Positions 2,486-51,769 of a stretch of 64,000 nucleotides of DNA are shown here, piece by piece. The notes below the pieces were generated by a model. The model worked only from the letters and a program-made list of their open reading frames with translations, made no database searches and was not told the DNA's origin. Each line of letters opens with the position of its first letter. Position 1 is the first letter of the stretch. The position numbers and the translations under genes were made by a program. This stretch comes from a virus (Duplodnaviria; Heunggongvirae; Uroviricota; Caudoviricetes): IMG/VR virus record IMGVR_UViG_3300020045_008999, positions 1 to 64,000 of that record; one strand, 5' to 3'.

Positions 2486-3724
2486 ATGAAAAATATCGTA
2501 ACTGAATTTAGATGGCGCGGTCTATTACAAAACCTATCAAATGGGACCGAAGAACAATTAACAAAGGAATCGACAAGCGTGTACATTGGATTTGATCCAA
2601 CATCGGATTCACTTCATGTTGGAAGTTTAGTACCAATCATAATGTTGAAACATTTAGAAAATTTCAATCACAAACCAATTGTTTTAATTGGTGGGGCCAC
2701 TGGAATGATTGGTGACCCAAGTGGGAAATCCGAAGAACGCAACCAACTATCATCAGACGAGCTTGATAAAAATTATGAGGGAATTCGTAAAACCTTACGA
2801 CATTTTTTAACAAACGCAACGTTTGTAAATAATTTCGACTGGATGTCAAAATTCTCGTTTTTAGATTTCATTAGTCAAATTGGAAAAATGATTACTGTTA
2901 ACTACATGATGGGTAAAGAATCGGTGAAAACAAGATTAGATAAAGGCGGAATGTCCTTTACTGAATTCACATACCAATTGCTACAAGGATATGATTTCAT
3001 GCACTTGTATGAAAATTACAATTGCAAGGTGCAGATGGGTGGATCTGATCAATATGGCAACATGACTACTGGATTAGAGCTTATTCGTAAAAAAGGAGGT
3101 CACGGGTTCGCACTAACATGTCCATTATTGGTTAAATCTGATGGGCAAAAATTCGGAAAATCAGAATCGGGAAATATCTGGTTAGACAAATCCAAGACTT
3201 CGGTATATGAATTTTACCAATTTTGGTTAAACCAAAGTGATCAAGATAGTGAACATCTTATTAAAACACTCACTTTCATGGATCAAGAATCAATACTTGC
3301 TCTTATTGCCGAGCATAAAATTGATGAATCAAAAAGGTTGCTTCAAAAACGATTGGCTTCGGAATTAACTATATTTGTGCATAGTGAAGAAGACCTACAA
3401 GATGTTGTCAACGTTTCAAATGTTATTTTCAATCGTGGTATTTTCGATGATAATACCAATATGCAGATGCTTACAGAAGTAGTTAACGATGCCAAAGAAG
3501 TTGAATTATCATCCGGGGTTACCGTATTGGATTTTTTAACTATGTCAGATTTTCTAACGTCTAATAATGAACGACGTCGGGCATTAAATGAGGGATCGGT
3601 GTTGATTAATAAGATCAAGGTTAATATAGACACGATGATCACAAAATCACACTTCATTAAAAATCACTTACTGATTCAACGCGGTAAAAAAATGTCAAAA
3701 GTGATAGTTCTCACTAATGCGTAA
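2486..3724 (+). CDS. tyrS: Tyrosyl-tRNA synthetase (class I aaRS)
   Basis: YIGFDPTSDSLHVGSLVPI (HIGH-type motif region), KFGKSESGNIWLD (KMSKS motif, as in bacterial TyrRS), and a C-terminal S4-like domain. 412 aa. Confidence 0.9.
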   Translation: MKNIVTEFRWRGLLQNLSNGTEEQLTKESTSVYIGFDPTSDSLHVGSLVPIIMLKHLENFNHKPIVLIGGATGMIGDPSGKSEERNQLSSDELDKNYEGIRKTLRHFLTNATFVNNFDWMSKFSFLDFISQIGKMITVNYMMGKESVKTRLDKGGMSFTEFTYQLLQGYDFMHLYENYNCKVQMGGSDQYGNMTTGLELIRKKGGHGFALTCPLLVKSDGQKFGKSESGNIWLDKSKTSVYEFYQFWLNQSDQDSEHLIKTLTFMDQESILALIAEHKIDESKRLLQKRLASELTIFVHSEEDLQDVVNVSNVIFNRGIFDDNTNMQMLTEVVNDAKEVELSSGVTVLDFLTMSDFLTSNNERRRALNEGSVLINKIKVNIDTMITKSHFIKNHLLIQRGKKMSKVIVLTNA

Positions 3725-20921: not shown

Positions 20922-20977
20922 TAATTGTATCAATTAGTAATAGCCACTACACTAAAAACCAATTATACAATTACTTG

Positions 20978-21059
20978 TGGGGAGGGCTGGATTCGAACCA
21001 ACGAAGGCAATGCCGCCAGATTTACAGTCTGGTCCTTTTGACCGCTTGGGTATCTCCCC
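20978..21059 (-). tRNA. tRNA-Tyr (anticodon GTA), long variable arm
   Basis: Reverse complement GGGGAGATACCCAAGCGGTCAAAAGGACCAGACTGTAAATCTGGCGGCATTGCCTTCGTTGGTTCGAATCCAGCCCTCCCCA folds as a cloverleaf closely parallel to bacterial tRNA-Tyr. Confidence 0.8.
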
Positions 21060-21151
21060 TACCGGATATTTATAAAATAGAAGATGCAAATAATACAAAT
21101 TATACATTTTTAAATATTCTTAATTAACCGTTTAAGGTCAATTTAATTTGT

Positions 21152-21223
21152 GGTCCCGGAGAATTTTGAAATCCCGGCCTGAAAATTATGAGTTTCCTGC
21201 TCTACCTCTGAGCTACGAGACCA
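21152..21223 (-). tRNA. tRNA-Met/Ile2 (anticodon CAT), non-canonical T-arm
   Basis: Reverse complement GGTCTCGTAGCTCAGAGGTAGAGCAGGAAACTCATAATTTTCAGGCCGGGATTTCAAAATTCTCCGGGACCA. Acceptor, D and anticodon arms are good; the T-stem has a T53-T61 mismatch. Confidence 0.55.
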
Positions 21224-25813: not shown

Positions 25814-26200
25814 TCAAATCAAATTGATTAGTTCGGTAAACCCAGTTGGGATGTCAAATTCGATAATATTGCACATATCTAAAATAGATGTATCACAATC
25901 TTTACCGATGGCCAAATTGGTATTCATAAATACATGCTTCCCAAATCCATATAAACCAATTGATGCTTCACAATTTGATTCACCCGAGGAATGTTTGGTG
26001 AGCATAATATTTGCAAAGGAACCACGTTCGCGTTTTGCGTTTTTCAAAATACTAACCGCTTCTGGTGTGATATCAATCTCATCCACCGAAATAACAACCC
26101 CGAGTTGGTTTTCGGATTTGGGGTTATTTATAAATACCCCATTTTCAATATCAGTTTCAGCTCCGATTGCCCCTTTGTAAGCAAATATAATAGTTCTCAT
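25814..26200 (-). CDS. Hypothetical protein
   Basis: 128-aa ORF. Confidence 0.4.
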   Translation of the reverse strand: MRTIIFAYKGAIGAETDIENGVFINNPKSENQLGVVISVDEIDITPEAVSILKNAKRERGSFANIMLTKHSSGESNCEASIGLYGFGKHVFMNTNLAIGKDCDTSILDMCNIIEFDIPTGFTELINLI

Positions 26201-26988
26201 TAGAAATTTATTTTCAAGGTTCGTTCGAATTTTCCAACAACTTTACAGATGATGGAATTTCTTTGAGTAGATGAAAATCCAACCCCACTCAATTGTTTCT
26301 CACTAGAATCTACTTTAAGTTTTCCACCTAAAATTTCAAATACCCGACGATTTTTATCAAGATCTTCTGAAAGAAATTCATTGAAAAAACCTCGTGGGGT
26401 TTCGTCATTATGAGTACCCTCTAACATGAAAAACAAATGTTTGTTTCCAATATTACTTTCCCAGTGATTTGGTGAATTCATGATCATGGATACTTTTTGG
26501 AATTTATTAGTACTCAATCCCCATTTTTCCTTAGATGACATACTAGTATTGGCATTTTTGTTGAATTTTACACCATCACTTTTTGAGTATGTGAAACTAA
26601 CCACACTAATCTTTTCTTTATTTTTTATGGATGTCGATTGGTTAAATGATCCAACCTCACCACGGCATTCAATTTCAATATCAAATCCGAAATCTTTAGC
26701 TTCACGTTTGTTAAAGTTATTAACCTTAACTTCATAAGTACCCTCTAACATTTTATTGTATGTGAATCGTGATGCTAAAAAAGCTCTCGGTATATTCGAG
26801 GAATTGAAAGAGGATGTCCCAGTGAATAGCAAAAGCTTATCAAAAGTAGAAGAAGTTACTATTGATAAATTCATCACCGATATTTTACCAACTGTGAAAA
26901 GCTTAGAAGTATTGGTAGAGAATAAACATCTAAATAATTTGGTAAGCTTAATTGCACCGATAAATAAAGAAGCCCCATCATTATTCAA
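26200..26988 (-). CDS. Hypothetical protein
   Basis: 262-aa ORF. Confidence 0.45.
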   Translation of the reverse strand: MNNDGASLFIGAIKLTKLFRCLFSTNTSKLFTVGKISVMNLSIVTSSTFDKLLLFTGTSSFNSSNIPRAFLASRFTYNKMLEGTYEVKVNNFNKREAKDFGFDIEIECRGEVGSFNQSTSIKNKEKISVVSFTYSKSDGVKFNKNANTSMSSKEKWGLSTNKFQKVSMIMNSPNHWESNIGNKHLFFMLEGTHNDETPRGFFNEFLSEDLDKNRRVFEILGGKLKVDSSEKQLSGVGFSSTQRNSIICKVVGKFERTLKINF

Positions 26989-26998
26989 ATGGAAAAAT

Positions 26999-27736
26999 TC
27001 ATATTCCTGGAGTTATGTAAATGCCCTGACCGATTGATGAATTTCTAATTTTAGATTGAGATTGATGAACCGTTGCCGATCTTAGCCAAGCATAATTTTC
27101 TTTATTCGCACTAAGATCAAATTCTTTTTTTGATTTTAGGAAATCCGTTAACAATCCCTTGAATTCATCACCTTTATATAATGAATTTTGGGCAATCAAT
27201 TCTAAAACTGATTCAACAGAATCAATCGTAATTTCTTCCAGTGATCTTTTGAATACTGAATAATTGGCATTGTGTTCGGATAATTTTGTATCCACACTCA
27301 CCCCTCTAGTTGTAAGTATAGCATTTGAAGATTTTATAAAAAAATGATCCCATGTGATTGATGAGGTAGGAGTTATCTCTACATTTGAATCAGTTCCCAA
27401 TGATGTAGTATCGGTAACTAGGCGGTTTTTAATTGCAGAATTTACTACAAGTGAATTTAAATCAAATGCAGTTTTCGTATATAGTTCACTACTTGGGACA
27501 AAATTCCAAATAGATACTAATTTATCATCAACTATTGTAACAATACTGGCATAGTATCTAATAAATTGACGACAACAATTACAATTATGATATTGTCTTT
27601 CATCCGGATCTTCGAAAGAATTTAAATAAGTTTCCCACAAAACTTCTTTATCCACATCAGCGGTAAACAATATTGCGGAATTTTTACTCATTTCATGAAA
27701 TGAATCTTGTATTTCTTTTTTAAATGTTTTGAACAT
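26999..27736 (-). CDS. Hypothetical protein
   Basis: 245-aa ORF. Confidence 0.45.
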   Translation of the reverse strand: MFKTFKKEIQDSFHEMSKNSAILFTADVDKEVLWETYLNSFEDPDERQYHNCNCCRQFIRYYASIVTIVDDKLVSIWNFVPSSELYTKTAFDLNSLVVNSAIKNRLVTDTTSLGTDSNVEITPTSSITWDHFFIKSSNAILTTRGVSVDTKLSEHNANYSVFKRSLEEITIDSVESVLELIAQNSLYKGDEFKGLLTDFLKSKKEFDLSANKENYAWLRSATVHQSQSKIRNSSIGQGIYITPGI

Positions 27737-35107: not shown

Positions 35108-37435
35108 ATGCCAGCAATAAGAGATTCCTCATTTAAATTTAATACCGCAACCGCAACCACACTAGTATTGCCGGCGGTAAATGTACTTGTAAATGATTTG
35201 ATGATTGCTTTAATTTCTATAGATACCGGTACTTCGGCGGTTACCGCAACCGGATGGACGGAATTATTTAGAACGACATCTACGTCTCAACTCGTATGTA
35301 TGTATAAAATTAGTAATGGTACCGAAGAAGATATTACATTTACATATGCAGTAGAAACGGCGGTGGGTTGTTTAATATCCATTAAAGATGTTAATACAAC
35401 CAATCCGTTTGGTGCCACGCCGGTTTTTAATAGTGTCGCTTCTGCTACCACTGCTAAAATAACGATGCAACAAATCACCACTACTATTCCAAATTCGTTA
35501 ATTTTATATGTTAACGGCCGTTCCGCTGTAGGAATACCGTCATTTTTGGAGGGGGCGGTTAGTAGTTTGTTTGCGGGTGATGGTGGTGCTGAATCATTAG
35601 CTGTTGGTTGGGGCTTCCAAGCAAATGTGGGAACTACCCCAAATAATATAGTATCATCAGCATTGACCGCGGTAGCCGGAGTTCGTGCAGTAATTCAGAT
35701 AGCACCACCTAGTGGTGGTGCTACAATAATTCCAACGTATTGTACATCGGATAGTTCAATTTATGTGGATCCCATAAATGGCACTAGTGCATATAATGGT
35801 AATACCGCATTGGCAGCAACCGCCGATACTGGTTTTAGTACAACACTTGGTGCATTTGCAGCAGCGGATGCTACGGTAGCAGCAGTTGCGGATGTTGGGA
35901 TTAACTCATTCCACTCTGTTGGTAGATTGACTTCAATATCAGCCAGTAAGAATTTATCTGGTGCCGAATTAGTTCTATTAGATGCCAATCGACCAAATAT
36001 AACTGGTAAGAATATATTAGTGCATTTGGGGGCGAGTACCGAGGGGCAGTTGCAACGATTTTCTAGTGTGGCCTCGGGTAGAGGAATCTGGTTTGGTGTA
36101 AGAAGTGGGGCGGCAGCCAATTGGAAGATCTGGCAAGTGTTTGGTGTGGAAAATGGTAGTGAGCGTCATAAACCAGTGGTGATAAATGAAAGTGCGTTAA
36201 ATGTTAAATCATCGAATGGAACTTTGGCCACCACTCTTGCTAAGGCTTTTGGATTTTGGGTTTCCGGTACGGGGGTTTTGACCACTATTTTCGATTTTGC
36301 TTCATTGTGGGTATTAGATACTTGTGTTGTTGGAGGGGGGAATGTGGCATTTCCGATGGATGTATCTGGAATAACCAGTGCCGTTGCTAAGGGAAAGGAA
36401 CGTAAAAACATATTACAACAAGGTGCCAAACAAGCTTTAATACTTAGTCATGTACAGTTAGGAAATGGTGGAACTAATCCAATATATTTGAATTTGGATG
36501 GTACAGCCATTGAGTTTCCGAAGCAATATAATGAGAGTACTGCTGAGGTAAGTTATAATAGTGTGGATAATGTCTGTGGGTTAACGTATTATGCGGGTGC
36601 AAGTGATGTTATAAAACACGTCAATTCTGTAGTATCATCTTCATCAAGATATCAGTGGGGATTACATCCATCTAGTTCGGCATCGGCTTCTTATGATTTT
36701 TCTGGTCTTTCAGTGATTGGCGCGGGTACGGTAATGTTGGGAATTGCCATCATCATTTCTGATTTGACTATTAATAGTTACACTACTTTAGACATAACAA
36801 ATGCTGATTTAATAGGGTGTTCGATCTTGAATGTTCCAACTACGAATGACAGTATGACTTCTAACACATCTACTTCAATTACCGAGGGTATAATAAACGT
36901 AACCGGTGTTACAGCGGGTAACAGATGGTGTTCAGTTGCAAACCCATCTATTTTCACTAATTCTACGTTTATCGGATCTGGTAGCTCAGGTCATGCAATT
37001 CGTATTACAACCCCCGGTACATATACCTTAACTAAACTTACATTTACCTCATTTGGGGCAAGCGCGACTAACTTCTCAGCTATTTATAATGATAGTGGTG
37101 GTTTAGTCACGCTGAATGTTTCAGGAGGTAATTCACCTACAATTAGAAATGGGACCAGTGCATCTACTGTTGTGAATAATGTAATAACCCTAACTCTTAA
37201 TGGTTTGGTTACTGGTTCTGATATTGTTTTCTTGGTTGCTGGTACAACTACGCGTAGAGCAAATATTGATAGTAATGTGGGTTCTACATGGGCATATGTT
37301 TATGCGACTGTTGAAAATGTAGATATTTTAGTTTATAAGTCAGGTTATTTACCGTTTACTATCCGAAACTATGCATTATCAACATCAAGTACTTCATTGC
37401 CAATAGCCCAGGTTAGTGATCGTAACTATGCATAA
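35108..37435 (+). CDS. Large virion structural protein (putative tail fiber / receptor-binding)
   Basis: 775 aa, Ala/Thr/Gly/Ser/Asn-rich beta-type composition. First of three large co-directional ORFs with minimal spacing. Confidence 0.4.
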   Translation: MPAIRDSSFKFNTATATTLVLPAVNVLVNDLMIALISIDTGTSAVTATGWTELFRTTSTSQLVCMYKISNGTEEDITFTYAVETAVGCLISIKDVNTTNPFGATPVFNSVASATTAKITMQQITTTIPNSLILYVNGRSAVGIPSFLEGAVSSLFAGDGGAESLAVGWGFQANVGTTPNNIVSSALTAVAGVRAVIQIAPPSGGATIIPTYCTSDSSIYVDPINGTSAYNGNTALAATADTGFSTTLGAFAAADATVAAVADVGINSFHSVGRLTSISASKNLSGAELVLLDANRPNITGKNILVHLGASTEGQLQRFSSVASGRGIWFGVRSGAAANWKIWQVFGVENGSERHKPVVINESALNVKSSNGTLATTLAKAFGFWVSGTGVLTTIFDFASLWVLDTCVVGGGNVAFPMDVSGITSAVAKGKERKNILQQGAKQALILSHVQLGNGGTNPIYLNLDGTAIEFPKQYNESTAEVSYNSVDNVCGLTYYAGASDVIKHVNSVVSSSSRYQWGLHPSSSASASYDFSGLSVIGAGTVMLGIAIIISDLTINSYTTLDITNADLIGCSILNVPTTNDSMTSNTSTSITEGIINVTGVTAGNRWCSVANPSIFTNSTFIGSGSSGHAIRITTPGTYTLTKLTFTSFGASATNFSAIYNDSGGLVTLNVSGGNSPTIRNGTSASTVVNNVITLTLNGLVTGSDIVFLVAGTTTRRANIDSNVGSTWAYVYATVENVDILVYKSGYLPFTIRNYALSTSSTSLPIAQVSDRNYA

Positions 37436-37476
37436 AATAAAATTAATATATAATAAATTAAAATAAAACTAAATAA

Positions 37477-39120
37477 ATGGCAAAATTAACGAGTAGAGCT
37501 TCCTTGAATGTCGGAACGGAGCTAACTGTAAATACAGCGACAAAAAAAATAACATTAAATATAGCCGGTGCACTTATCGCAAAAGATGGTGTGACTGTAC
37601 AGGCGGTATATTCTAAATTGATTGACTTGTGGACCACCGCAACTTACAATGATTTTCCGTTCCCAATGTATGCGTTGGACGTTTTGTCTGGACAATTTCA
37701 AATTGGAACAGACGGAGCAACGTATAATGGGTGGACATTTGGTGATGATGCAACCAGAGGTTATCTTCGTGATGGTGGTTGGTCAGAGTATAATGCCAGT
37801 GGTGCGTTAGCAAGACAATATGCGGGTATTGTATCATTGGGTGCTGTATCGGCTGGATCTCAATTGTATTACCAAACAACACCAACTGGTGCCCCTATCA
37901 ATGCAATATATACGGATGCTATGAATCAAGCGGTTCAGGTTTATGGTGACATCGCGATTGATTCGACAACAACAACATTTGATACCCGAACATTCTTTAA
38001 GGGATTTGTGAGAGAGTATGCCAAGAAGTATAAAGATTCGATATTAGCAGATACCGGTAAAACCTCAACTGGGGCGAATATTGTGAATGTCTTGTTATCA
38101 AATGAGAATGACCTTGACATTTTGGTTGCAGATGGAACTATTACTTCATCGCCGTATTCCGAAATAAATGTAAAATATTTCCCTACTGCATTTAATAAAG
38201 ATATTGATACAGTTGGGACACCTAGACTATTTGGATTGGTAATTGACGTTGGTACACATTCCGGTGTTGATGGTGCTGGAGCAAATGCTGCTACATCTAT
38301 GACTACAGCAGGTGCGGGTATTACAATTGCGAATTATTATGGTGGTAAATTAACTATTCATAATGGTGCAGCAAAGGGAATTTATACAATTTCTGGATCC
38401 GGTGGTAGTGCAACCTCTGTACCACTTACAAGTGGTTTGTTAGGGATTGCCTCTGGTGCATCTTTTACATTACAGCGTGCTGCACCGGTTAGTGCTACAC
38501 TACAACAAATTTATACCAAAATTCAGTACCAATTGCGTCAAAATAGTAATATCAATGGTTTGGCATCTGCCGGATCTATCATTGGTAAAACAGCGGTGCA
38601 ACAATTAAATTTCGTTGGATCTGCATTGAAAGCTGGATTTTATTCACCAACCAATGGTAATGGTGGTGGTACAGGTGTTACTATCATGGGATATTCTGCA
38701 TTAGATGTGAATAACTTTACATCATATGACAATACTGGTACAACTAGAGATTATCCATACTCTTCTGCTGGTGCATTGAACTGTAATGCGAATTTAACAA
38801 GCGGTGGTACTGGATATTATAGAATGTATTTCACAACAAATCCAGCGGGTAACTACGGTACTGCTACAGCGGTTACTGTAAATGATGCTTCTGGTGTTCC
38901 TATTGCGGGTGTGATTAGTGGAAGTTCTATAAACTTTACTTATGACTGGACCAATAATGTACAGGGTGGTCGTTCTGGTGGTGTTGATGCTTCGGTGACC
39001 GTTGTGGCAGGTAATGCATCTAAAGCTAAACCGGTGGTTGCTACTGGAACATTAGGGCAGTCCAAATCGATTTCAATTTCCTTAGTTGCTGAAACGGATA
39101 GAGCGTATATCATTGTTTAA
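37477..39120 (+). CDS. Large virion structural protein (putative tail fiber / sheath-like)
   Basis: 547 aa, Gly/Thr/Ala-rich. Confidence 0.4.
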   Translation: MAKLTSRASLNVGTELTVNTATKKITLNIAGALIAKDGVTVQAVYSKLIDLWTTATYNDFPFPMYALDVLSGQFQIGTDGATYNGWTFGDDATRGYLRDGGWSEYNASGALARQYAGIVSLGAVSAGSQLYYQTTPTGAPINAIYTDAMNQAVQVYGDIAIDSTTTTFDTRTFFKGFVREYAKKYKDSILADTGKTSTGANIVNVLLSNENDLDILVADGTITSSPYSEINVKYFPTAFNKDIDTVGTPRLFGLVIDVGTHSGVDGAGANAATSMTTAGAGITIANYYGGKLTIHNGAAKGIYTISGSGGSATSVPLTSGLLGIASGASFTLQRAAPVSATLQQIYTKIQYQLRQNSNINGLASAGSIIGKTAVQQLNFVGSALKAGFYSPTNGNGGGTGVTIMGYSALDVNNFTSYDNTGTTRDYPYSSAGALNCNANLTSGGTGYYRMYFTTNPAGNYGTATAVTVNDASGVPIAGVISGSSINFTYDWTNNVQGGRSGGVDASVTVVAGNASKAKPVVATGTLGQSKSISISLVAETDRAYIIV

Positions 39121-39137
39121 TTATAAAAATAAATAGC

Positions 39138-40544
39138 ATGGGATATATTTTTGATGGTGCAAATAAAATAATAAGTTTAACGACTGGTACCACATCGGTA
39201 TCAGTTCGTGACTTATGGAGTAGGTATTCTGATTGGGTTCCTGTAGATGACAATAGTAAGTATGAATTAGCAATGCGATTTGTTGGTGGTGATGCTTTAC
39301 CAGGTGATAAAGAATTGGGATTAACATACTTCATGACCAATAATTGGAAGATACGGCCTTATAGCGGAAATCATACTTTGAATATTGATGGTAACTTGTA
39401 TAGTGATGATGGATCTAGTCCATATACCAATGTACTTGGAAGTTATAACGTGATGCTTATCAGTTCAGTATCGTCATTAGTTGATAGTACAATCCAGCAA
39501 TTGCCGGAAATTGAATATGCTTCATATAACGGTGGGGTTACGTTGGATGTTGTTAATGGTACTGATTCGTCTGAATATCCTTATGGGACACCGAACCACC
39601 CTTGTAAGACAATTTCAAATTCTTACAATATAAGAATGGCGAGAGGGTTTAAAAAAGTATTTTTACGGAGTGACTTACATTTAATAGGGATCCCGGATGG
39701 TATTCTTAATGATCTAGAATTAGTTGGGGTTACTGGATTCAAAACTCATTTAGTCACTGGTAGTAATGTATTATTGACGAATTGTTCTGCGTCTAATTTA
39801 AAAATAACCGGTGTTGCCAAACCAGGATCAACATTGAAATTAGACAATTGTGACATGTATAATCTGGAAAATGCAAATGTAGTTGCATCAGATTGTTTTA
39901 TCTATGACGGATTGTATAATGTTACCGAATTATTTAGATGTCGGGTTGAGGGGGATATAACTGTGGTTGACGGTGGTAATTTCTCTGGGGTGAATGTAGT
40001 TTTTAACGGGGATTTTTCGTCAATTGATTGTATGGGTAGTATGACTACTGTTTCACTTGATATTGACAGTGGGTATGTTAAAATTTTAAATTCGGTTGAA
40101 TCCTGTCTGTTAGAATTCAATTTGCGTGGTGGTGAGCTAGAGATTGATGATAGTTGTATAGGTGGTGATTTGTACATTGAGGGATATGGTAAATTGTACA
40201 ATACCTCAGCGGTGAACATTAAGGCCAATAATTTACAAACAGTAATAATACCAGATGCGGTATGGGATGTACAAACGAGTGAACATCAATTAGAGGGTTC
40301 AGTGGCGGAAGCATTGACTAACGGAATGGGAAGTTCGTTAACCAAAGAAGATATTAGAGAGGAGATAGACAGTAATAGTAGTGCATTATCTAATTTGAGA
40401 AGATTAAGTGCCGAGATCCATAGAATAAATGGATTGGATAAATTAAATCCAACAACGGTGACTAAAGAAAGTCGTATTTCTGGTGACATTGAACAAGATT
40501 TCGCATTGGATTATGACGGTAATGTAACTATAACACGAAGATGA
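39138..40544 (+). CDS. Putative tail spike / fiber protein with beta-helix-like repeats
   Basis: 468 aa with repetitive N/G/V-rich segments (NCSASNLKITGV, NCDMYNLENANVV) and a C-terminal coiled segment. Confidence 0.35.
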   Translation: MGYIFDGANKIISLTTGTTSVSVRDLWSRYSDWVPVDDNSKYELAMRFVGGDALPGDKELGLTYFMTNNWKIRPYSGNHTLNIDGNLYSDDGSSPYTNVLGSYNVMLISSVSSLVDSTIQQLPEIEYASYNGGVTLDVVNGTDSSEYPYGTPNHPCKTISNSYNIRMARGFKKVFLRSDLHLIGIPDGILNDLELVGVTGFKTHLVTGSNVLLTNCSASNLKITGVAKPGSTLKLDNCDMYNLENANVVASDCFIYDGLYNVTELFRCRVEGDITVVDGGNFSGVNVVFNGDFSSIDCMGSMTTVSLDIDSGYVKILNSVESCLLEFNLRGGELEIDDSCIGGDLYIEGYGKLYNTSAVNIKANNLQTVIIPDAVWDVQTSEHQLEGSVAEALTNGMGSSLTKEDIREEIDSNSSALSNLRRLSAEIHRINGLDKLNPTTVTKESRISGDIEQDFALDYDGNVTITRR

Positions 40545-40873: not shown

Positions 40874-41395
40874 TTAGTAATTTTTTTTATAACTCAGTGT
40901 ATATTTATCACTAAACATTCCATTATTATGCAATGTGCAGCAAAGGGAACAGGCTACTTTTTTCTTAGCGATTCGATTTCTATTTGATTCGGTGCCACAT
41001 TTTTTACAACGCAGCGTATATTTGCCGGTTGGGATTTTTAATTCTGTATGGTCACAATATGCCCTGGGATCACACCCAATTGTTTTTGATATATTTTGCC
41101 ATGGAATCCCATGGTCGGTTTTACCTCTGGTTTCGAAATCTATCGCGTGAGCAATTTCATGTAGAATTGTCTCTTTCCAAATTTCAAGATCATGATTGTG
41201 ATTTATTAAATAACTAGATAATGATATTTGCTTTTTTCCAACGGCACATAGACCGAGTATTGTCTTTCGTTTATTATATGAGAACGTCCAACCCATCTCA
41301 ATCAGGTTAAAAGTATCATTGTCAATAATCCAACAATTATTTAAAAAAGAACTTGCTAATGCGTCAATCTCAGATATAATCCCAATTCCTTCCAT
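40874..41395 (-). CDS. SprT-like zinc metallopeptidase with C-terminal zinc ribbon
   Basis: HEIAHAIDFETRGKTDHG (HExxH motif) plus CKKCGTESNR...CSLCC. Confidence 0.6.
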   Translation of the reverse strand: MEGIGIISEIDALASSFLNNCWIIDNDTFNLIEMGWTFSYNKRKTILGLCAVGKKQISLSSYLINHNHDLEIWKETILHEIAHAIDFETRGKTDHGIPWQNISKTIGCDPRAYCDHTELKIPTGKYTLRCKKCGTESNRNRIAKKKVACSLCCTLHNNGMFSDKYTLSYKKNY

Positions 41396-41729
41396 ATTTA
41401 TCTAGTATGAGTCAAAAGTAATGATAATTTATAGTTTTAACAAATTTTTTTCTGAAATTTTCTGACAAATTTATAACGTTCTGATAATTATAGGATTATA
41501 TATTTCCTAATATATATTGTTAATTTTTCAAAATTTAGTCATTATTATGATATTTGCTATTATGTGGTTAATTTTTTGTATTTTTTACATATTAAATGTG
41601 GTTTTAATCGGTTTAATTGGCATTTAATCAGTAAGTATTGTTCATATTATTAAAAACTTTGTTAAAAACTTTTTTTTTCACTTATTTTTTTGTACATTTG
41701 AGTAAAATAACGTATAAATAACCAAAATT
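41396..41729. promoter_or_regulatory. 334-bp AT-rich divergent intergenic region
   Basis: No ORFs; lies between a minus-strand and a plus-strand gene; many T/A runs. Confidence 0.35.
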
Positions 41730-44150
41730 ATGTCAAATAAAAAAACATTTTTGGATTTGTATAACGCAAATTCTGAAAGAGAATTAGTTAAAATTGTGGA
41801 GAATGATAGCATGCTTTCTAATCCAGAAAATTGGCTACCATACGGTGGCAATAAAGGGAACTTTGGTACCTTTGAAAACCAACAGAACGCGTCTATTCCG
41901 GCCCTTATTGAGAAAATTACGAACAGTATGGATGCTTGTTTACTAAGGGAAGCCAAAATTAATGGTGTTGACCCAAAATCAAAATCAGCTCCGAGATCAA
42001 TGACAGAGGCGGTTGAGCGATTTTATCATATTAAAGATGGTGACATTGGTGCACTTAGTAATATCGAACGTCGATTAATAGCTGAAAATATTCAAGTTAT
42101 TGCAGTTGGTGATAAACAAATACCATCCATTATTATTTATGATAATGGCGAGGGACAGTCACCTAATAACTTCAACAATACCTTTCTATCACTTCATAAT
42201 AGTAATAAAACAAATATCCATTTTGTACAAGGTAAGTATAATATGGGATCTACCGGTGCTGTTGTTTTTTGTGGTGAAAGAAAGTATCAAATGATCGCAT
42301 CAAAAAGAGCTTCTTTATTGGGTGAGACTGATGATGGGGATGATGGTAATTTTGGGTTTACTTTAGTTCGACGTCATGAATTGACCCCTGAGGAAGAAGA
42401 AGACTATGGTAAATCTACGTGGTATGAATATTATGCACCCGGTGGTGAAATTTCTAATTTTCCAATTAAGGACTTGGATTTAGGGTTATACGGTAGGAAA
42501 TTTGTATCTGGTAGCATTGTCAAATTATATTCATATGAATTACCGCGTGGATCTCGTTCGAATTTAACTTTCGATTTATGGCGTGATTTAAATCAATTTT
42601 TATATGATTTACCATTACCGATTTCCTTATATGAAAAACGTGATTACATATTGAAAAACCCTAGTAAAATTGTGTTGGGTAATCGCATTCGTATTACGGT
42701 TGATAGTAGGGATAGTGTGAAAGAGGTAATCACATTTAATTTAGGCAATGAGGCCATCTTAGGCAATGTTAAAATTGAAGTAATTATATTTAATCACAAG
42801 GTCGATCATAATGAATTTATAAAAAATAAATCCATTATATTTACACAGAATGGCCAGGTACATGGTTTTGAGGGACAATCATTTATATCACAGGAGCTTG
42901 GTTTTAGTTTGTTGAAAAAAACCATGTTAATACATGTAAATTGTACTGACATATCAACATCATTGCGTCAAGATTTATTCATGGCAAACCGAACCCATCT
43001 TAAAAATAGTCACAAGACAGAACTTCTTCGAAGTGAAATTATTAATTTGTTGAAAAAATCGGAAATTTTAAAGGCTTTGAATGAGCAAGCAAAAAAATCA
43101 TTATTGCAAGATTCCGGTGATGATGTGGATTTGTTATCAACATTACTATCGAAACTTCCAATTGATAAGGATGTGCTGGATTTACTAAAGAAAAATGGGT
43201 CACTCAATTTTCTAAAACAGGCCGGACATAAAGTGAGTCAGGGCGAGCGCAATACTGAAGTGAAAGTTTTGAATAAATTCCCTGCCATGTTCAAATTAGA
43301 TCTTAAGAAAGACAAAACATTGGGTAAAATATACAAAACGATTCCTTTGAATTCAAAAGGAACTGTGAAGATAAATGTGGATGTTGATAATGAGTTTTTA
43401 TTTCGAACAAAAGACACCGGTAAATTAGAAATTCAAGTATTGCGAAAAGTAAATGTTAGTGATGCACCACTCACCGAGGATACACATCCTAGTGAAAATG
43501 CGACAATATCTTCTGATATTTTGAATATTGATCGCGAGGGTCCAAATGATGGTACAATCAAGCTTATTATTACCCCTAATGAAAATGCGAAGGTTGGTGA
43601 TGAAGTTGAGGTGAGGGCTGTGCTTAGTTCAGCCGGTGGGAAATCGTTTGAATGTGTTTTTGATGTGCGAGTTGATAAAGAAATTAGCAAACCTAAACAA
43701 ATAAAGCACATAGCAACGGAGACCTTTCCAAATTTGCCTACACCGAGAAAGGCATATGAATTTCCGATTGATGAAAATTCATTAGCATGGGATTCCGAAG
43801 ATCTAAATTGGACCGGACATGATATTGTTAAGGTTATAACCTCATCGGATGATAAGAGTGAATTAATGGTCGCTGGAATTATTGTCAATATGGATTCATT
43901 TGTATTGAAAAGTTTTTTATCTAAAAACAAAATAAATACCGAAAACGATATCAGGTATAATAAAGATAAGTATTTCTTATCAATTTATCTACATTCATTG
44001 TTTTTGTTTAGTATTTTGCAAAAAATGAGAAACAATGATGATAAGTTACAAGCTATAGAAGTTGATGATTTCGTATCACTTATGATTAAACCTTATGCTA
44101 ATTTTTTAATGTATGAAAATTTCCATATTACAAAAATGGCGTTTTCTTAA
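41730..44150 (+). CDS. Large protein with N-terminal GHKL (Bergerat-fold) ATPase signature
   Basis: LIEKITNSMDACLL (ExxxNxxDA N-box), IIIYDNGEGQ (DxGxG G1-box), GKYNMGSTGAVVF (G2-box). The 500-aa C-terminal part has no recognised motif. Confidence 0.55.
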   Translation: MSNKKTFLDLYNANSERELVKIVENDSMLSNPENWLPYGGNKGNFGTFENQQNASIPALIEKITNSMDACLLREAKINGVDPKSKSAPRSMTEAVERFYHIKDGDIGALSNIERRLIAENIQVIAVGDKQIPSIIIYDNGEGQSPNNFNNTFLSLHNSNKTNIHFVQGKYNMGSTGAVVFCGERKYQMIASKRASLLGETDDGDDGNFGFTLVRRHELTPEEEEDYGKSTWYEYYAPGGEISNFPIKDLDLGLYGRKFVSGSIVKLYSYELPRGSRSNLTFDLWRDLNQFLYDLPLPISLYEKRDYILKNPSKIVLGNRIRITVDSRDSVKEVITFNLGNEAILGNVKIEVIIFNHKVDHNEFIKNKSIIFTQNGQVHGFEGQSFISQELGFSLLKKTMLIHVNCTDISTSLRQDLFMANRTHLKNSHKTELLRSEIINLLKKSEILKALNEQAKKSLLQDSGDDVDLLSTLLSKLPIDKDVLDLLKKNGSLNFLKQAGHKVSQGERNTEVKVLNKFPAMFKLDLKKDKTLGKIYKTIPLNSKGTVKINVDVDNEFLFRTKDTGKLEIQVLRKVNVSDAPLTEDTHPSENATISSDILNIDREGPNDGTIKLIITPNENAKVGDEVEVRAVLSSAGGKSFECVFDVRVDKEISKPKQIKHIATETFPNLPTPRKAYEFPIDENSLAWDSEDLNWTGHDIVKVITSSDDKSELMVAGIIVNMDSFVLKSFLSKNKINTENDIRYNKDKYFLSIYLHSLFLFSILQKMRNNDDKLQAIEVDDFVSLMIKPYANFLMYENFHITKMAFS

Positions 44151-44162
44151 AACTAAATAATC

Positions 44163-44486
44163 ATGACAATATCTGATTTTATAGGAGCAGAAATAAAAGT
44201 AAAGGATCAAATAGTTGAGGTATCCTACGTCGGGATCGTTGATGGATACCTCATGTTTGGTTTCATGGTTGGTAGTAAAATTAAGACAATTAACTCTAAT
44301 AAAGTGATTATCGAGATTGAATATATCAACCGGCCAACCTTTCATGGTGAGACTTATTTCATAGGTCCTAGTATTGTAACTGCTCGTTGGACTGATGATG
44401 AGTATCTATTAATAAAACGGGGACGAACTAAAGTATTGGACATTGCATTAAGTGAAGTTCGTTTGCGTGAAGTTCGTGAATCGTGA
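44163..44486 (+). CDS. Hypothetical protein
   Basis: 107-aa ORF. Confidence 0.4.
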   Translation: MTISDFIGAEIKVKDQIVEVSYVGIVDGYLMFGFMVGSKIKTINSNKVIIEIEYINRPTFHGETYFIGPSIVTARWTDDEYLLIKRGRTKVLDIALSEVRLREVRES

Positions 44487-44518: not shown

Positions 44519-44905
44519 TTGATTTATAAATTTAATACGATGACAATACCTGAAATACACATTATTTGTAAGCGATATGAAATCGATCACTATATCATAT
44601 TAGAAAACCGTTCACTAGATGTATTTGGTAATGTTAATTTATCAAATTCAAATCTTATTGAAATACCAATCCTATTTAATTGTGTTAGCGGGAATTTTAC
44701 TTGTTGTCATAATAAAATTGAGTTACTGGTCGGTTTACCAAAACATGTTGGTGGTGATTTGTGTTTTGAGTCAAATTCACTGATATTTGTACCTGATAAT
44801 TTTAAATTATTATCAAAGTGTGATGTTACCGGCGAGTTCTATCTTGACATTCCATTTAAAAATGCACTTAAACGGTATAATGAAATTATGAGTATAATAG
44901 GTTAG
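44519..44905 (+). CDS. LRR-like repeat family protein, subfamily B (short)
   Basis: N-terminal MTIPEIHIICKRYEIDHYII...LDVFGNVNLSNSNLIEIPILFNCVSGNFTC and C-terminal FKNALKRYNEIMSII. Confidence 0.5.
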   Translation: MIYKFNTMTIPEIHIICKRYEIDHYIILENRSLDVFGNVNLSNSNLIEIPILFNCVSGNFTCCHNKIELLVGLPKHVGGDLCFESNSLIFVPDNFKLLSKCDVTGEFYLDIPFKNALKRYNEIMSIIG

Positions 44906-44927: not shown

Positions 44928-45548
44928 CTATTCCAGTCCTTCCTCAATTTCTAATATTAAATCCTTGAAGTTTTCTAAATTTAAGCTCAAATCATCATTC
45001 CAAATTTGAAAATAACGCTGGTACTTAAGGATTAACTTAAACTTATGGTTATCAGTCTCAATGACACCTTTTATTATTTCTGGAAGACCTGATCGCAAAA
45101 TACCCACTACATTACCCACCAACTCGATATCAATTTCACCGGAATATGTTGATGTTAGACTAGCATTACCAAAAATGTAAAAATTTCCACCGATATATTC
45201 GGGTGCCCCAATGAGGTTTGTGATTTGGTTTGAGTCTATCGACAATGATCCACCTACATGTTTTGGTCCCCCTATTAAAGAAGTAATTTTATTAGTATAA
45301 CAATAAAAATCACCATTTACCATTTTAGGGGATCCTGAAATATTCGTTAGATTATTATTAGTGCAAAAAAAACCACCATATACATCATTAAACTTTAATG
45401 GAATTGATGTCAGATTTTGTCTCTCCAAATGTACATTACCATCAACATCAATACTACCATCTGAGTTAATTGAATAGTTTCTAATATCATATTTAGAGCA
45501 TATTGCATCGATTTTATCTTTTTTTGATTTATTTATTAGATTCTTCAT
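44928..45548 (-). CDS. LRR-like repeat family protein, subfamily A
   Basis: C-terminal KLILKYQRYFQIWNDDLSLNLENFKDLILEIEEGLE. Tail-to-tail with 44519-44905. Confidence 0.6.
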   Translation of the reverse strand: MKNLINKSKKDKIDAICSKYDIRNYSINSDGSIDVDGNVHLERQNLTSIPLKFNDVYGGFFCTNNNLTNISGSPKMVNGDFYCYTNKITSLIGGPKHVGGSLSIDSNQITNLIGAPEYIGGNFYIFGNASLTSTYSGEIDIELVGNVVGILRSGLPEIIKGVIETDNHKFKLILKYQRYFQIWNDDLSLNLENFKDLILEIEEGLE

Positions 45549-50524: not shown

Positions 50525-51769
50525 ATGAATATAGATGTAATATTTTTATCTGATACTAAAACATCAGACTTAACTCAATCGGCGATAGATACTATTAAGT
50601 CTTCCGAAACGAACATTGTGTTTGACATAATAGTTATTGAAAAATCGAAAAAGTTATACGAGGGGGTTACTAATGTAAAACTTAGTGATGAATTCAATTA
50701 TAATAAGTTTATGAATATTGGTGCTAGTATGGGCACCAATGAATACATCGTATTTTGTAATAACGATCTGTTATTTACCAAAGGCTGGTTTACTGAATTG
50801 TTGGAATATGGTAAAGATTGTATGTCCCCAAAGTGTCCAAATGATTTTAGACAAATGGATAAGGTTGATCCAATCGTAAGTGGATATGATATTGGAAGTA
50901 TTTTTTGTGGATGGTGTTTCGTATTGAAGCGAACCATATGGGAAGAAATTGGTGGGCTTGATGAAGATTTTAAATTTTGGTTTGCTGATAATGCAACAGT
51001 TGAACAACTAAAGGAAATTGGGGTGATGCCTAATTTAATTACCAAATCGCTAGTGACTCATTTAGGCAGTCGTACATTAAAAATGCTTGATGGTGAATCT
51101 CAAAAAGAATTAACCTTTTCTCAGAATGAACTATTTGTAAATAAATACAAAAGTAATAAAATATCTAATGAACCGCCGCGCGAGGTATTCCGATATGATA
51201 TAATTAATGATGTAATTACGCGATATGAATTTACCTCTTATTTGGAAATCGGATTTCAAAATGGTGTGTGTTTTAGTAACGTTAAATGTCTTAATAAAAA
51301 TGCGGTTGATCCATATCCATTAGTAAGTGTTCCTGAATTATATATCGAGACTAGTGATTCATTTTTTGACCGCAATATGCATCCGTATGACGTTATATTC
51401 ATAGATGGGTTACATACATATCACCAGGTAAAAACTGACTTTGAAAATGCCCTTAAAATAGCTAAAGTAATCATATTACATGATATGAATCCGAGTAGTG
51501 AAGAACGTTCTAAATCGTTTGATCTTGGTGGACAGTGGAATGGTGATTGCTATAAACTGGCAATCGACTTGGCAAATGGTCAATATGATCTTCGGTATAT
51601 TACCATCGACGAAGATCAGGGTACTATGGTAGTGTTTAATGATAATTTCACACAGCCAAATGAAGTAAAATATTCACATAATTACCAATCATTTGATCCG
51701 AACCGGGAAGCTATTTTAAATCTGAGAACTTATACTGAATTTTTACGCGAACTTAAATATTTTTTTTAA
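50525..51769 (+). CDS. Bifunctional glycosyltransferase (GT2-like) / class I SAM-dependent methyltransferase (TylF/Methyltransf_24-like)
   Basis: N-terminal VIFLSD...IVFCNNDLLF...GGLDEDFKFWFAD. C-terminal YLEIGFQNGVCFS...YDVIFIDGLHTYHQVKTDFENALKIAKVIILHD matches the macrocin-O-methyltransferase fold. Confidence 0.55.
   Translation: MNIDVIFLSDTKTSDLTQSAIDTIKSSETNIVFDIIVIEKSKKLYEGVTNVKLSDEFNYNKFMNIGASMGTNEYIVFCNNDLLFTKGWFTELLEYGKDCMSPKCPNDFRQMDKVDPIVSGYDIGSIFCGWCFVLKRTIWEEIGGLDEDFKFWFADNATVEQLKEIGVMPNLITKSLVTHLGSRTLKMLDGESQKELTFSQNELFVNKYKSNKISNEPPREVFRYDIINDVITRYEFTSYLEIGFQNGVCFSNVKCLNKNAVDPYPLVSVPELYIETSDSFFDRNMHPYDVIFIDGLHTYHQVKTDFENALKIAKVIILHDMNPSSEERSKSFDLGGQWNGDCYKLAIDLANGQYDLRYITIDEDQGTMVVFNDNFTQPNEVKYSHNYQSFDPNREAILNLRTYTEFLRELKYFF

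Follow-up and report, generated by a model that had tools for sequence, protein, structure and literature searches.

What does an 806-amino acid (aa) GHKL ATPase do in the genome of a tailed phage? This question is raised by one gene in the IMG/VR virus record IMGVR_UViG_3300020045_008999 (Caudoviricetes), of which positions 1 to 64,000, here called the window, were analysed. We found that the phage protein is one branch of a large, mostly bacterial and unnamed family of ~800-aa proteins, and not a phage invention. The assignment of its fold, as a MORC/MutL-type ATPase with a GHKL and an S5 domain, is near certain. With its motifs intact, it appears to be a catalytically competent ATPase of the "paraMORC" kind.

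Fold and domain architecture

A preliminary description of this locus, made from the DNA letters, had reported the three GHKL motifs in their proper order within this open reading frame (ORF). All three are present, with the N-box LIEKITNSMDACLL beginning at residue 59, DNGEG at 138 and GKYNMGSTGA at 168. The N-box residues E61, N65, D68 and A69 are found in the window protein and are invariant across 66 aligned sequences. In the same alignment E61, N65, D68, D138, G140, G142, G168, K169, G173 and G176 do not vary across both clades of the family, which are described below. A Walker A motif was looked for in the window protein and none was found.

The structure model has the alpha/beta sandwich of the Bergerat fold, directly followed by a transducer domain of the S5 type (ribosomal protein S5 domain 2-like), as in MORC and MutL. 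Both structural checks proposed in the preliminary description therefore came out in its favour. The two-domain fold is nearest to MORC3, SMCHD1 and MutL, and the best structural matches also include MORC2. Hsp90 complexes were at the top of the Foldseek search of the PDB (E=1e-9), and GyrB, ParE and Topo VI-B are strong structural matches as well. In a third proposed check, against hidden Markov models of GHKL families, Pfam HATPase_c_3 (PF13589) covers residues 118-181 only, with 24.7 bits (E=2.7e-5), just under its 25-bit gathering threshold. This is a borderline miss and not evidence against the fold, as many homologues have a precomputed PF13589 match. For the 240 listed homologues, the precomputed Pfam annotation is either PF13589 or nothing.

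Searches of PDB sequences with the protein and with two profiles gave chance matches only. No PADLOC-DB 2.0.0 model was found at E<=1 for the window protein or at E<=1e-3 for a member of clade B. Likewise, no known anti-defence family in PHROGs or Pfam matches the window protein.

The ~600 residues that follow the motifs had been described as without any recognisable feature. This does not hold, since the transducer and a helical linker lie here, together with two Ig-like sandwiches and a conserved alpha/beta domain at the C-terminal (Table 1). These domain calls are based on a second AlphaFold2 run, with sequences of both clades, which mostly repaired the C-terminal half; in a first run with 33 close sequences this half was unreliable, with a predicted local distance difference test (pLDDT) score of 66.7. 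DSSP of the model places helices at residues 3-11, 16-25, 27-30 and 45-51 of the N-terminal segment, with pLDDT ~90. W35 and G39 of its NWxPYGG motif are invariant among the 66 sequences, and in the model this segment is a possible dimerisation strap. The linker helices span 428-442, 445-474 and 480-488. Conservation is lowest in this region, and pLDDT falls below 50 for 480-514. In the C-terminal domain, the conserved positions are NMDS (720-723), Y748, Y753, Y789 and FL (792-793). No nuclease domain was detected in the window protein.

Table 1. Features of the GHKL locus, in window coordinates.
Feature	Position	Strand	Details
GHKL gene	41730..44150	+	806-aa ORF; MORC/MutL-like GHKL and S5 ATPase with family-specific C-terminal extension
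Residues 1-50	41730..41879	+	N-terminal helical segment ahead of ATPase core; conserved NWxPYGG motif
Residues ~55-270	41892..42539	+	Bergerat ATP-binding domain; N-box E61/N65/D68, G1 D138xGxG142, G2 G168KYNMGxxG176, GFT211
Residues ~280-420	42567..42989	+	S5/transducer-like second domain; invariant NGQVH (G375, Q376, H378) and LFMxxR (M418, R421)
Residues ~428-514	43011..43271	+	Long helical linker, then low-confidence variable segment 480-514
Residues ~521-649	43290..43676	+	Two all-beta Ig-like sandwich domains (521-572, 598-649)
Residues ~671-806	43740..44147	+	C-terminal alpha/beta domain, 3 strands and 3 long helices; matched to no named fold
Divergent intergenic region	41396..41729		334 bp, 18.3% guanine-cytosine (GC)
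TACATTTG	41693..41700	+	Match to Bacteroidota -7 consensus TAnnTTTG; ends 29 nt before ATG
SprT-like zinc metalloprotease	40874..41395	-	Divergent, 173 aa; HEIAH motif and C-terminal Cys-rich zinc ribbon; Pfam PF10263 E=1.4e-11
Downstream ORF	44163..44486	+	107 aa, 13 nt downstream of GHKL gene; candidate phage-specific partner

Family size and distribution

A word-indexed search found 1826 homologues. The best 120 of these are all full-length (~790-820 aa, 53-91% identity) and are called "hypothetical" by every source, with many on megabase Bacteroidota chromosomes. In an exhaustive search, 1618 representatives of 50%-identity clusters reached E<=1e-3 and 523 reached E<=1e-30. Conservation is most widespread in the N-terminal ~570 residues. 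Furthermore, two strict peptide patterns alone recover 540 loci, with one genome per GTDB species, from Bacteroidota, Proteobacteria, Clostridia, Planctomycetota, Omnitrophota, Nitrospirota, Gemmatimonadota and metagenome-assembled genomes (MAGs) of Hodarchaeota. The family is patchy across bacteria and some archaea, including Asgard MAGs, which looks like lateral transfer.

A midpoint-rooted neighbour-joining (NJ) tree of the GHKL proteins has two clades, A, which contains the window protein, and B, whose members are 35-39% identical to it. The bacterial full-length relatives reach up to 65% identity. For the survey of gene context, ORFs were called in 84 loci, all neighbours were clustered and the recurrent ones were annotated.

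Clade B and phosphorothioation

In clade B, SspB (DUF4007), SspC and SspD are encoded within 8 kb of the GHKL gene in 30 of 36 loci, with PADLOC scores from E=1e-109 to 0. The GHKL gene often has the same orientation as sspD, at ~100 nt or less, and a cysteine desulfurase of the IscS type is often also present. In several loci iscS, sspB, sspC, sspD and the GHKL gene follow one another in this order on the same strand, separated by 6-175 nt. The Ssp-adjacent genes include those of loci L048, L053, L054, L056, L067, L069, L081 and L084, and for the GHKL gene at L053:8001-10436 the end of sspD lies 104 nt upstream.

DUF4007 as SspB, the BrxC-like protein as SspC and the PAPS reductase as SspD have been confirmed (PMC12839542). 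The described phosphorothioate (PT) restriction partners are SspE, SspFGH, DndFGH, DndI and PbeABCD (PMC8092258 and related papers). SspE is composed of DUF262 and DUF1524; a Walker A motif is present in SspF and an FtsK-like region in SspH, rather than GHKL domains (PMC8092258). Approximately 84% of 2,678 sspBCD modules have no known restriction partner (PMC8092258). In the literature searched, we found no description of a ~800-aa GHKL family linked to sspBCD or phosphorothioation. From its gene context, clade B is a strong candidate for an undescribed partner of the SspBCD systems. A Streptomyces HATPase named "SspH" was considered and rejected as a coincidence of names, being a 142-aa anti-sigma-like protein with no PT link.

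Other recurrent neighbours in clade B are a DUF262/GmrSD_N protein with a Ser/Thr kinase, DndB, and a second GHKL protein with a 633-aa protein. At least six SspBCD loci (L054:5571-7768, L058, L060, L076, L077, L078) have an added block of three genes, in the order DUF262/GmrSD_N (PADLOC NsnA-like, E=3e-42), Ser/Thr kinase (PD-T4-6/mad6-like) and GHKL protein. This block may be a composite effector module. At four loci (L056:10442-14745, L081, L071, L082), the GHKL gene is paired with a distinct 801-aa protein that has two GHKL domains, HATPase_c_3 at the N-terminal and HATPase_c at the C-terminal. The same four carry the 633-aa protein, which has no family match.

Clade A in bacteria

As for clade A, ssp genes are next to none of ~50 loci. 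Its members are either solo insertions between housekeeping genes or lie inside mobile and defence islands. One locus has an integrase, a transposase and a type I restriction-modification (R-M) system as neighbours, another a C5-methylase, a MutH-like nuclease, a metallophosphatase and a second GHKL protein, and one a KAP NTPase.

A conserved 76-aa protein is encoded directly upstream and on the same strand in 21-22 clade A loci from distant phyla. It is the most frequent partner of the clade A genes (L001:9767-9997, L002:9761-9991 and ~20 other loci), with the pattern RFxRxAxxR...L.NCSN..NYEY..ED..K. It occurs in Bacteroidota, Clostridia, Alphaproteobacteria and Omnitrophota, and once in clade B (L077). 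No match to it was found in Pfam, PADLOC or the PDB. In addition, six clade A loci have a YhcG/DUF1016 nuclease of the PD-(D/E)xK type (PADLOC candidate PDC-S02) 3-71 nt downstream.

The phage branch

The window is a phage genome, with tRNAs, and with a tyrosyl-tRNA synthetase and a glycosyltransferase that match phage PHROGs. An endolysin PHROG is matched at E=1e-83, a virion structural protein is encoded, and E values of ~1e-60 are reached for several PHROGs known from phages only. The closest relatives of the GHKL protein are all on phage-like contigs, eight in number, and share a micro-synteny of a divergent SprT gene, the GHKL gene and usually a small ORF. Their identities to the window protein are 91% (L003), 72% (L085 and L086), 71% (L087), 67% (L088 and L095), 66% (L090) and 65% (L089). 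The lineage appears to include jumbo phages, since the contig of L089 is 378 kb long (JAWVHG010000039.1, 377,743 bp). This phage-like contig carries the SprT-GHKL pair, with a T4-type RNA ligase, a DNA ligase, a polynucleotide kinase (PNK)-like kinase, a Macro domain protein and a CCA-adding enzyme near the GHKL gene. Across the related phages, the neighbours are Acb1, T4-type RNA ligase, PNK-like AAA_33/HD, Tpt1, Macro, NUDIX, DHFR and CCA-adding enzyme. These are typical auxiliary or counter-defence genes of large phages.

In the NJ tree, the phage copies group together within clade A, and their sister group consists of bacterial copies of the Bacteroidota type. Being monophyletic within clade A, they point to one transfer followed by vertical descent. 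Judged from these sequences, the gene was most likely captured once, from a bacterial family of the defence type, by the ancestor of a large Bacteroidota phage lineage.

The three motifs are intact in 7/7 phage copies examined. Between the window and L003, the non-synonymous rate dN is 0.060 and the synonymous rate dS ~3.1, which is near saturation, for a dN/dS of 0.019. The phage copies are under strong purifying selection.

Conserved genomic partners had also been suggested as a check. They were found in bacteria, with SspBCD in clade B and the 76-aa protein and nuclease in clade A, but the phage copies are without them: no 76-aa partner or nuclease neighbour is present at the phage loci. 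Many of the bacterial relatives show an operonic association with R-M or defence genes; the phage copy adjoins a SprT gene and a 107-aa ORF instead.

The window genome has no close relative among GenBank phages. Neither the protein nor the surrounding 4 kb of DNA gave a match when searched against these phages, and a search of IMG/VR gave one distant, clade B-like relative only. Since neither search gave a close relative, the lineage is absent from both collections.

Gene neighbourhood and control region

The preliminary description had noted a divergent AT-rich region of 334 bp and a SprT-like protease beside the gene, and both are borne out (Table 1). A SprT gene is next to the GHKL gene at all seven phage loci with upstream sequence and also at L095, and at none of 83 other loci; the contigs of the seven had been retrieved by way of the GHKL gene. 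In a search anchored on SprT, over metagenome and IMG/VR contigs, only one (L095) of 160 phage-type SprT loci has a GHKL gene. In the SprT tree, 7 of the 8 GHKL-linked SprTs fall in one clade. SprT as an obligate functional partner was therefore rejected, and on these two results the adjacency is best explained by inherited synteny and a shared divergent promoter region.

The 107-aa ORF is conserved in the four closest phage lineages only, and has no Pfam match. It was considered as a diverged form of the bacterial 76-aa partner, and this was rejected with an hhalign probability of 0.05%.

The GC content of the intergenic region is the lowest of the 334-nt windows sampled across the 64 kb. Overall, the region is 82% identical to that of L003, with near-identity over the ~70 nt closest to the ATG. 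TAnnTTTG is the -7 promoter consensus of Bacteroidota sigma-A promoters. The box TACATTTG is conserved in L003, and similar boxes are found upstream in L085, L087 and L089. Two more -7-like boxes, at 41473 and 41420 on the minus strand, lie ahead of the SprT gene. From these letters, TACATTTG is a putative promoter element, and the region fits divergent promoters of the Bacteroidota type and a Bacteroidota host. A sigma-70 scan of the control region showed no enrichment, no terminator was found in it and its inverted repeats are weak only.

Proposed role and alternative explanations

For the phage protein, we tentatively favour a role in conflict between genetic elements, either in excluding competing phages and mobile DNA or in acting on the host chromosome, and we hold this at somewhat less than even confidence. 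A replication or structural function is less likely. By analogy with MutL, MORC, GyrB and Hsp90, the binding of ATP would dimerise the N-terminal domains and close a clamp on DNA, with the Ig-like and C-terminal domains providing contact to a target or partner. The clamp would be directed at DNA judged foreign or unmarked. Two outcomes could be expected: the DNA would be entrapped and compacted, in a MORC-like way, or a nuclease would be licensed in trans, as MutL licenses MutH. At the bacterial loci, the licensed nuclease would be the adjacent YhcG PD-(D/E)xK or DUF262 protein. In the phage, the AT-rich divergent region would supply the gene with a promoter of its own, of the Bacteroidota type.

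Several points weigh against the conflict role. For the family as a whole this reading is computational, and the DNA binding of its members is a prediction by analogy. The "defence" label of clade A is one of guilt by association, and some copies are among housekeeping genes. In the phage copies, the effector step is left unexplained once both bacterial partners are lost. In the window itself, no Ssp homologue clusters with any ORF and no Dnd gene was found in the 64 kb; the PT link may not extend to the window protein, which is ~36% identical to the Ssp-linked clade. Lastly, a fixed locus with strong constraint across 65-91% identity resembles a core phage function and not a sporadic defence moron, an argument subject to ascertainment bias as regards the fixed locus, because the phage contigs were found through the GHKL gene itself.

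The main rival is that the same gene serves counter-defence, which we consider unlikely, if less so than the alternatives that follow. Here a captured copy of a host immune ATPase would neutralise the homologous or PT-based system of the host. It could trap the host protein in dead-end heterodimers, titrate its regulator, or take up the DNA mark or partner on which the host protein depends. In related phages the surrounding genes have known or probable counter-defence roles (Acb1, RNA-repair ligase, PNK, Tpt1, Macro, NUDIX), the bacterial partners are lost and the gene is stably inherited in the lineage. GHKL proteins work as dimers, and poisoning by heterodimers would be mechanistically easy. 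However, all the ATPase motifs and the whole 800-residue length are under strong purifying selection, and a simple decoy needs neither. The identity to bacterial copies is 65% or less, which is low for the poisoning of a specific host protein, and the searches for anti-defence families in PHROGs and Pfam gave no match.

A broader proposal is that the family is the missing class of PT-linked effectors, a clamp that reads PT status and serves many of the "orphan" SspBCD modules, with the phage lineage having domesticated a version without partners. We regard this as rather doubtful. If it were so, the phage version would tell its own DNA from that of the host or a competitor, or would blind the host version.

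Another candidate is a factor of phage DNA metabolism, for its own replication or packaging, such as an unrecognised ATPase subunit of the type II topoisomerase kind or a MORC-like genome compactor. The structural matches to GyrB, ParE and Topo VI-B point this way, together with a faint NCBIfam match to Topo VI-B. The fixed locus and strong constraint look core-like, and proteases of the SprT family, to which the neighbour belongs, are known to remove DNA-protein crosslinks. We nevertheless judge this quite improbable. A topoisomerase subunit was rejected, as neither the protein nor a neighbouring gene has the Toprim and 5Y-CAP (catalytic tyrosine) domains or reaches the curated family score.

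A divergent membrane-associated protector of the rIIA type, acting against prophage exclusion as T4 rIIA/rIIB act against RexAB, is very improbable. In jumbo phages, rIIA orthologues have an N-terminal GHKL domain, a variable C-terminus and a counter-defence role (PMC7824862). T4 rIIA itself gives a sub-threshold HATPase_c_3 match, its size is similar (725 vs 806 aa), and rIIA models in BFVD match at E 1e-8 to 1e-6 over ~410-500 columns. However, these structural matches are no better than those of phage topoisomerases or Hsp90-like proteins. BLASTP against T4 rIIA gives E=1.6 over the generic G1 and G2 boxes only, and the hhalign profile comparison a probability of 0.4%. There is no rIIA PHROG match, the downstream gene is the 107-aa ORF and not a rIIB-like neighbour, and none of the tests run links the bacterial full-length relatives of the window protein (up to 65% identity) to rIIA. 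The rIIA identity is thus largely refuted at sequence level, by sequence, profile, PHROG and synteny, and the structural likeness is generic.

Finally, a chaperone like Hsp90 or a signalling protein of the histidine-kinase type, the latter raised in the preliminary description, is no more probable than rIIA: Hsp90 complexes lead the Foldseek matches and viral Hsp90-like proteins match in BFVD, but kinase-type signalling is unlikely, given the lack of a DHp/HisKA domain and a fold nearest to that of MORC/MutL.

Other features of the window

The window encodes a full-length tyrosyl-tRNA synthetase at 2486..3724 (+) (phrog_9270, E=8e-121). Six tRNA genes are located at 20977-21222 and 63661-63970, including tRNA-Tyr and a tight Lys-His-Phe-Trp cluster at the window end.

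The adjacent ORFs 26200..26988 (-) and 26999..27736 (-) match parts of one 673-aa family, phrog_1735, the first its C-terminal 487-673 (E=5e-68) and the second its N-terminal 4-245 (E=6e-62). The pair looks like a split gene or a gene without its middle third. Three large co-oriented ORFs of 775, 547 and 468 aa at 35108..40544 (+) are rich in Gly, Thr and Ser and have no PHROG match. For the C-terminus of the 775-aa protein, similar hypothetical proteins exist in a 197-kb virus (Rctr197k) and on another Caudoviricetes contig. These three are probably tail-fibre or host-recognition proteins.

Two convergent small genes, 44519..44905 (+) and 44928..45548 (-), share the repeated motif GGPKHVGG.L…SN.I and have no Pfam match, which suggests paralogous leucine-rich/BspA-like repeat proteins. 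Lastly, a 414-aa protein at 50525..51769 (+) has a glycosyltransferase region (phrog_22332, E=1e-42) and a weak C-terminal match to DNA methyltransferases (E=6e-5). It could be related to the modification of phage DNA or of a surface.

Comparison with known systems

Prokaryotic MORCs and paraMORC1-5 are GHKL and S5 proteins of R-M operons, found with methylases, Vsr-type nucleases and helicases; a role in DNA looping and nuclease licensing was proposed for paraMORCs in 2008, by analogy with MutL (Iyer, Abhiman and Aravind 2008, PMC2292703). The present family has the same intact GHKL domain, S5/transducer and family-specific C-terminal extension, and is also sporadic and laterally mobile (PMC2292703). 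Its neighbours are alike too, including a cytosine methylase, Vsr/MutH-type and PD-(D/E)xK nucleases and a second GHKL protein. From the descriptions of that paper, it could not be assigned to any one of paraMORC1-5 (PMC2292703). Neither a nuclease nor a TIR domain is fused to the window protein, and it has no superfamily II (SF-II) helicase partner. The tandem Ig-like domains, the SspBCD linkage of clade B and a phage-fixed lineage are absent from those descriptions (PMC2292703).

The window protein is ~10-13% identical to the N-terminal ATPase of MutL/MLH1/PMS1 (LN40). Unlike MutL, it has neither the C-terminal dimerisation/endonuclease domain nor a MutS partner, and the family is found in a context of defence and mobile DNA, not of mismatch repair.

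Clade B holds the same position as SspE, SspFGH, DndFGH, DndI and PbeABCD, directly beside sspBCD and iscS. The window protein, in contrast, has no sequence relationship to these partners, no Walker A motif and no PADLOC match, where the presence of SspFGH models in PADLOC 2.0.0 is unconfirmed. Its clade A, the phage copy included, is not beside ssp genes.

T4 rIIA and its jumbo-phage orthologues are likewise phage-encoded, of ~700-800 aa, with an N-terminal GHKL domain, a second domain and a variable C-terminus, and have a proposed role in conflict with other elements. The homology is limited to superfamily motifs, there is no rIIB and the origin is separate, from bacterial clade A. The Shedu variant VcSduA combines GHKL with a DUF4263 nuclease, and according to a published proposal the effector is under the control of its GHKL ATPase, which has a clamp-like middle domain (PMC12137116). 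It has its own PD-(D/E)xK nuclease and the window protein has none; no Shedu model matches the window protein.

Significance

ATPases of the paraMORC kind, with GHKL and S5 domains, were predicted in 2008 to have a role in R-M, and almost none has been studied. They are the prokaryotic cousins of the MORC and SMCHD1 chromatin silencers of eukaryotes. The present finding defines a family of ~1600 clusters at 50% identity with a distinctive architecture and three testable contexts: beside SspBCD, with the 76-aa partner with or without a PD-(D/E)xK nuclease, and without partners but fixed in large phages. The first of these bears on a question of the phosphorothioate field, that of the sspBCD modules without a known restriction partner (~84%, PMC8092258).

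The phage branch is a natural experiment in the viral repurposing of a host immune ATPase. Should the protein compact or entrap DNA with no nuclease involved, MORC-type silencing would have a counterpart in bacteria or viruses. If the family does read PT status, this would link a MORC-type protein to backbone (sulfur) epigenetics for the first time, and would also be the first demonstrated case of one that is fixed in a virus lineage.

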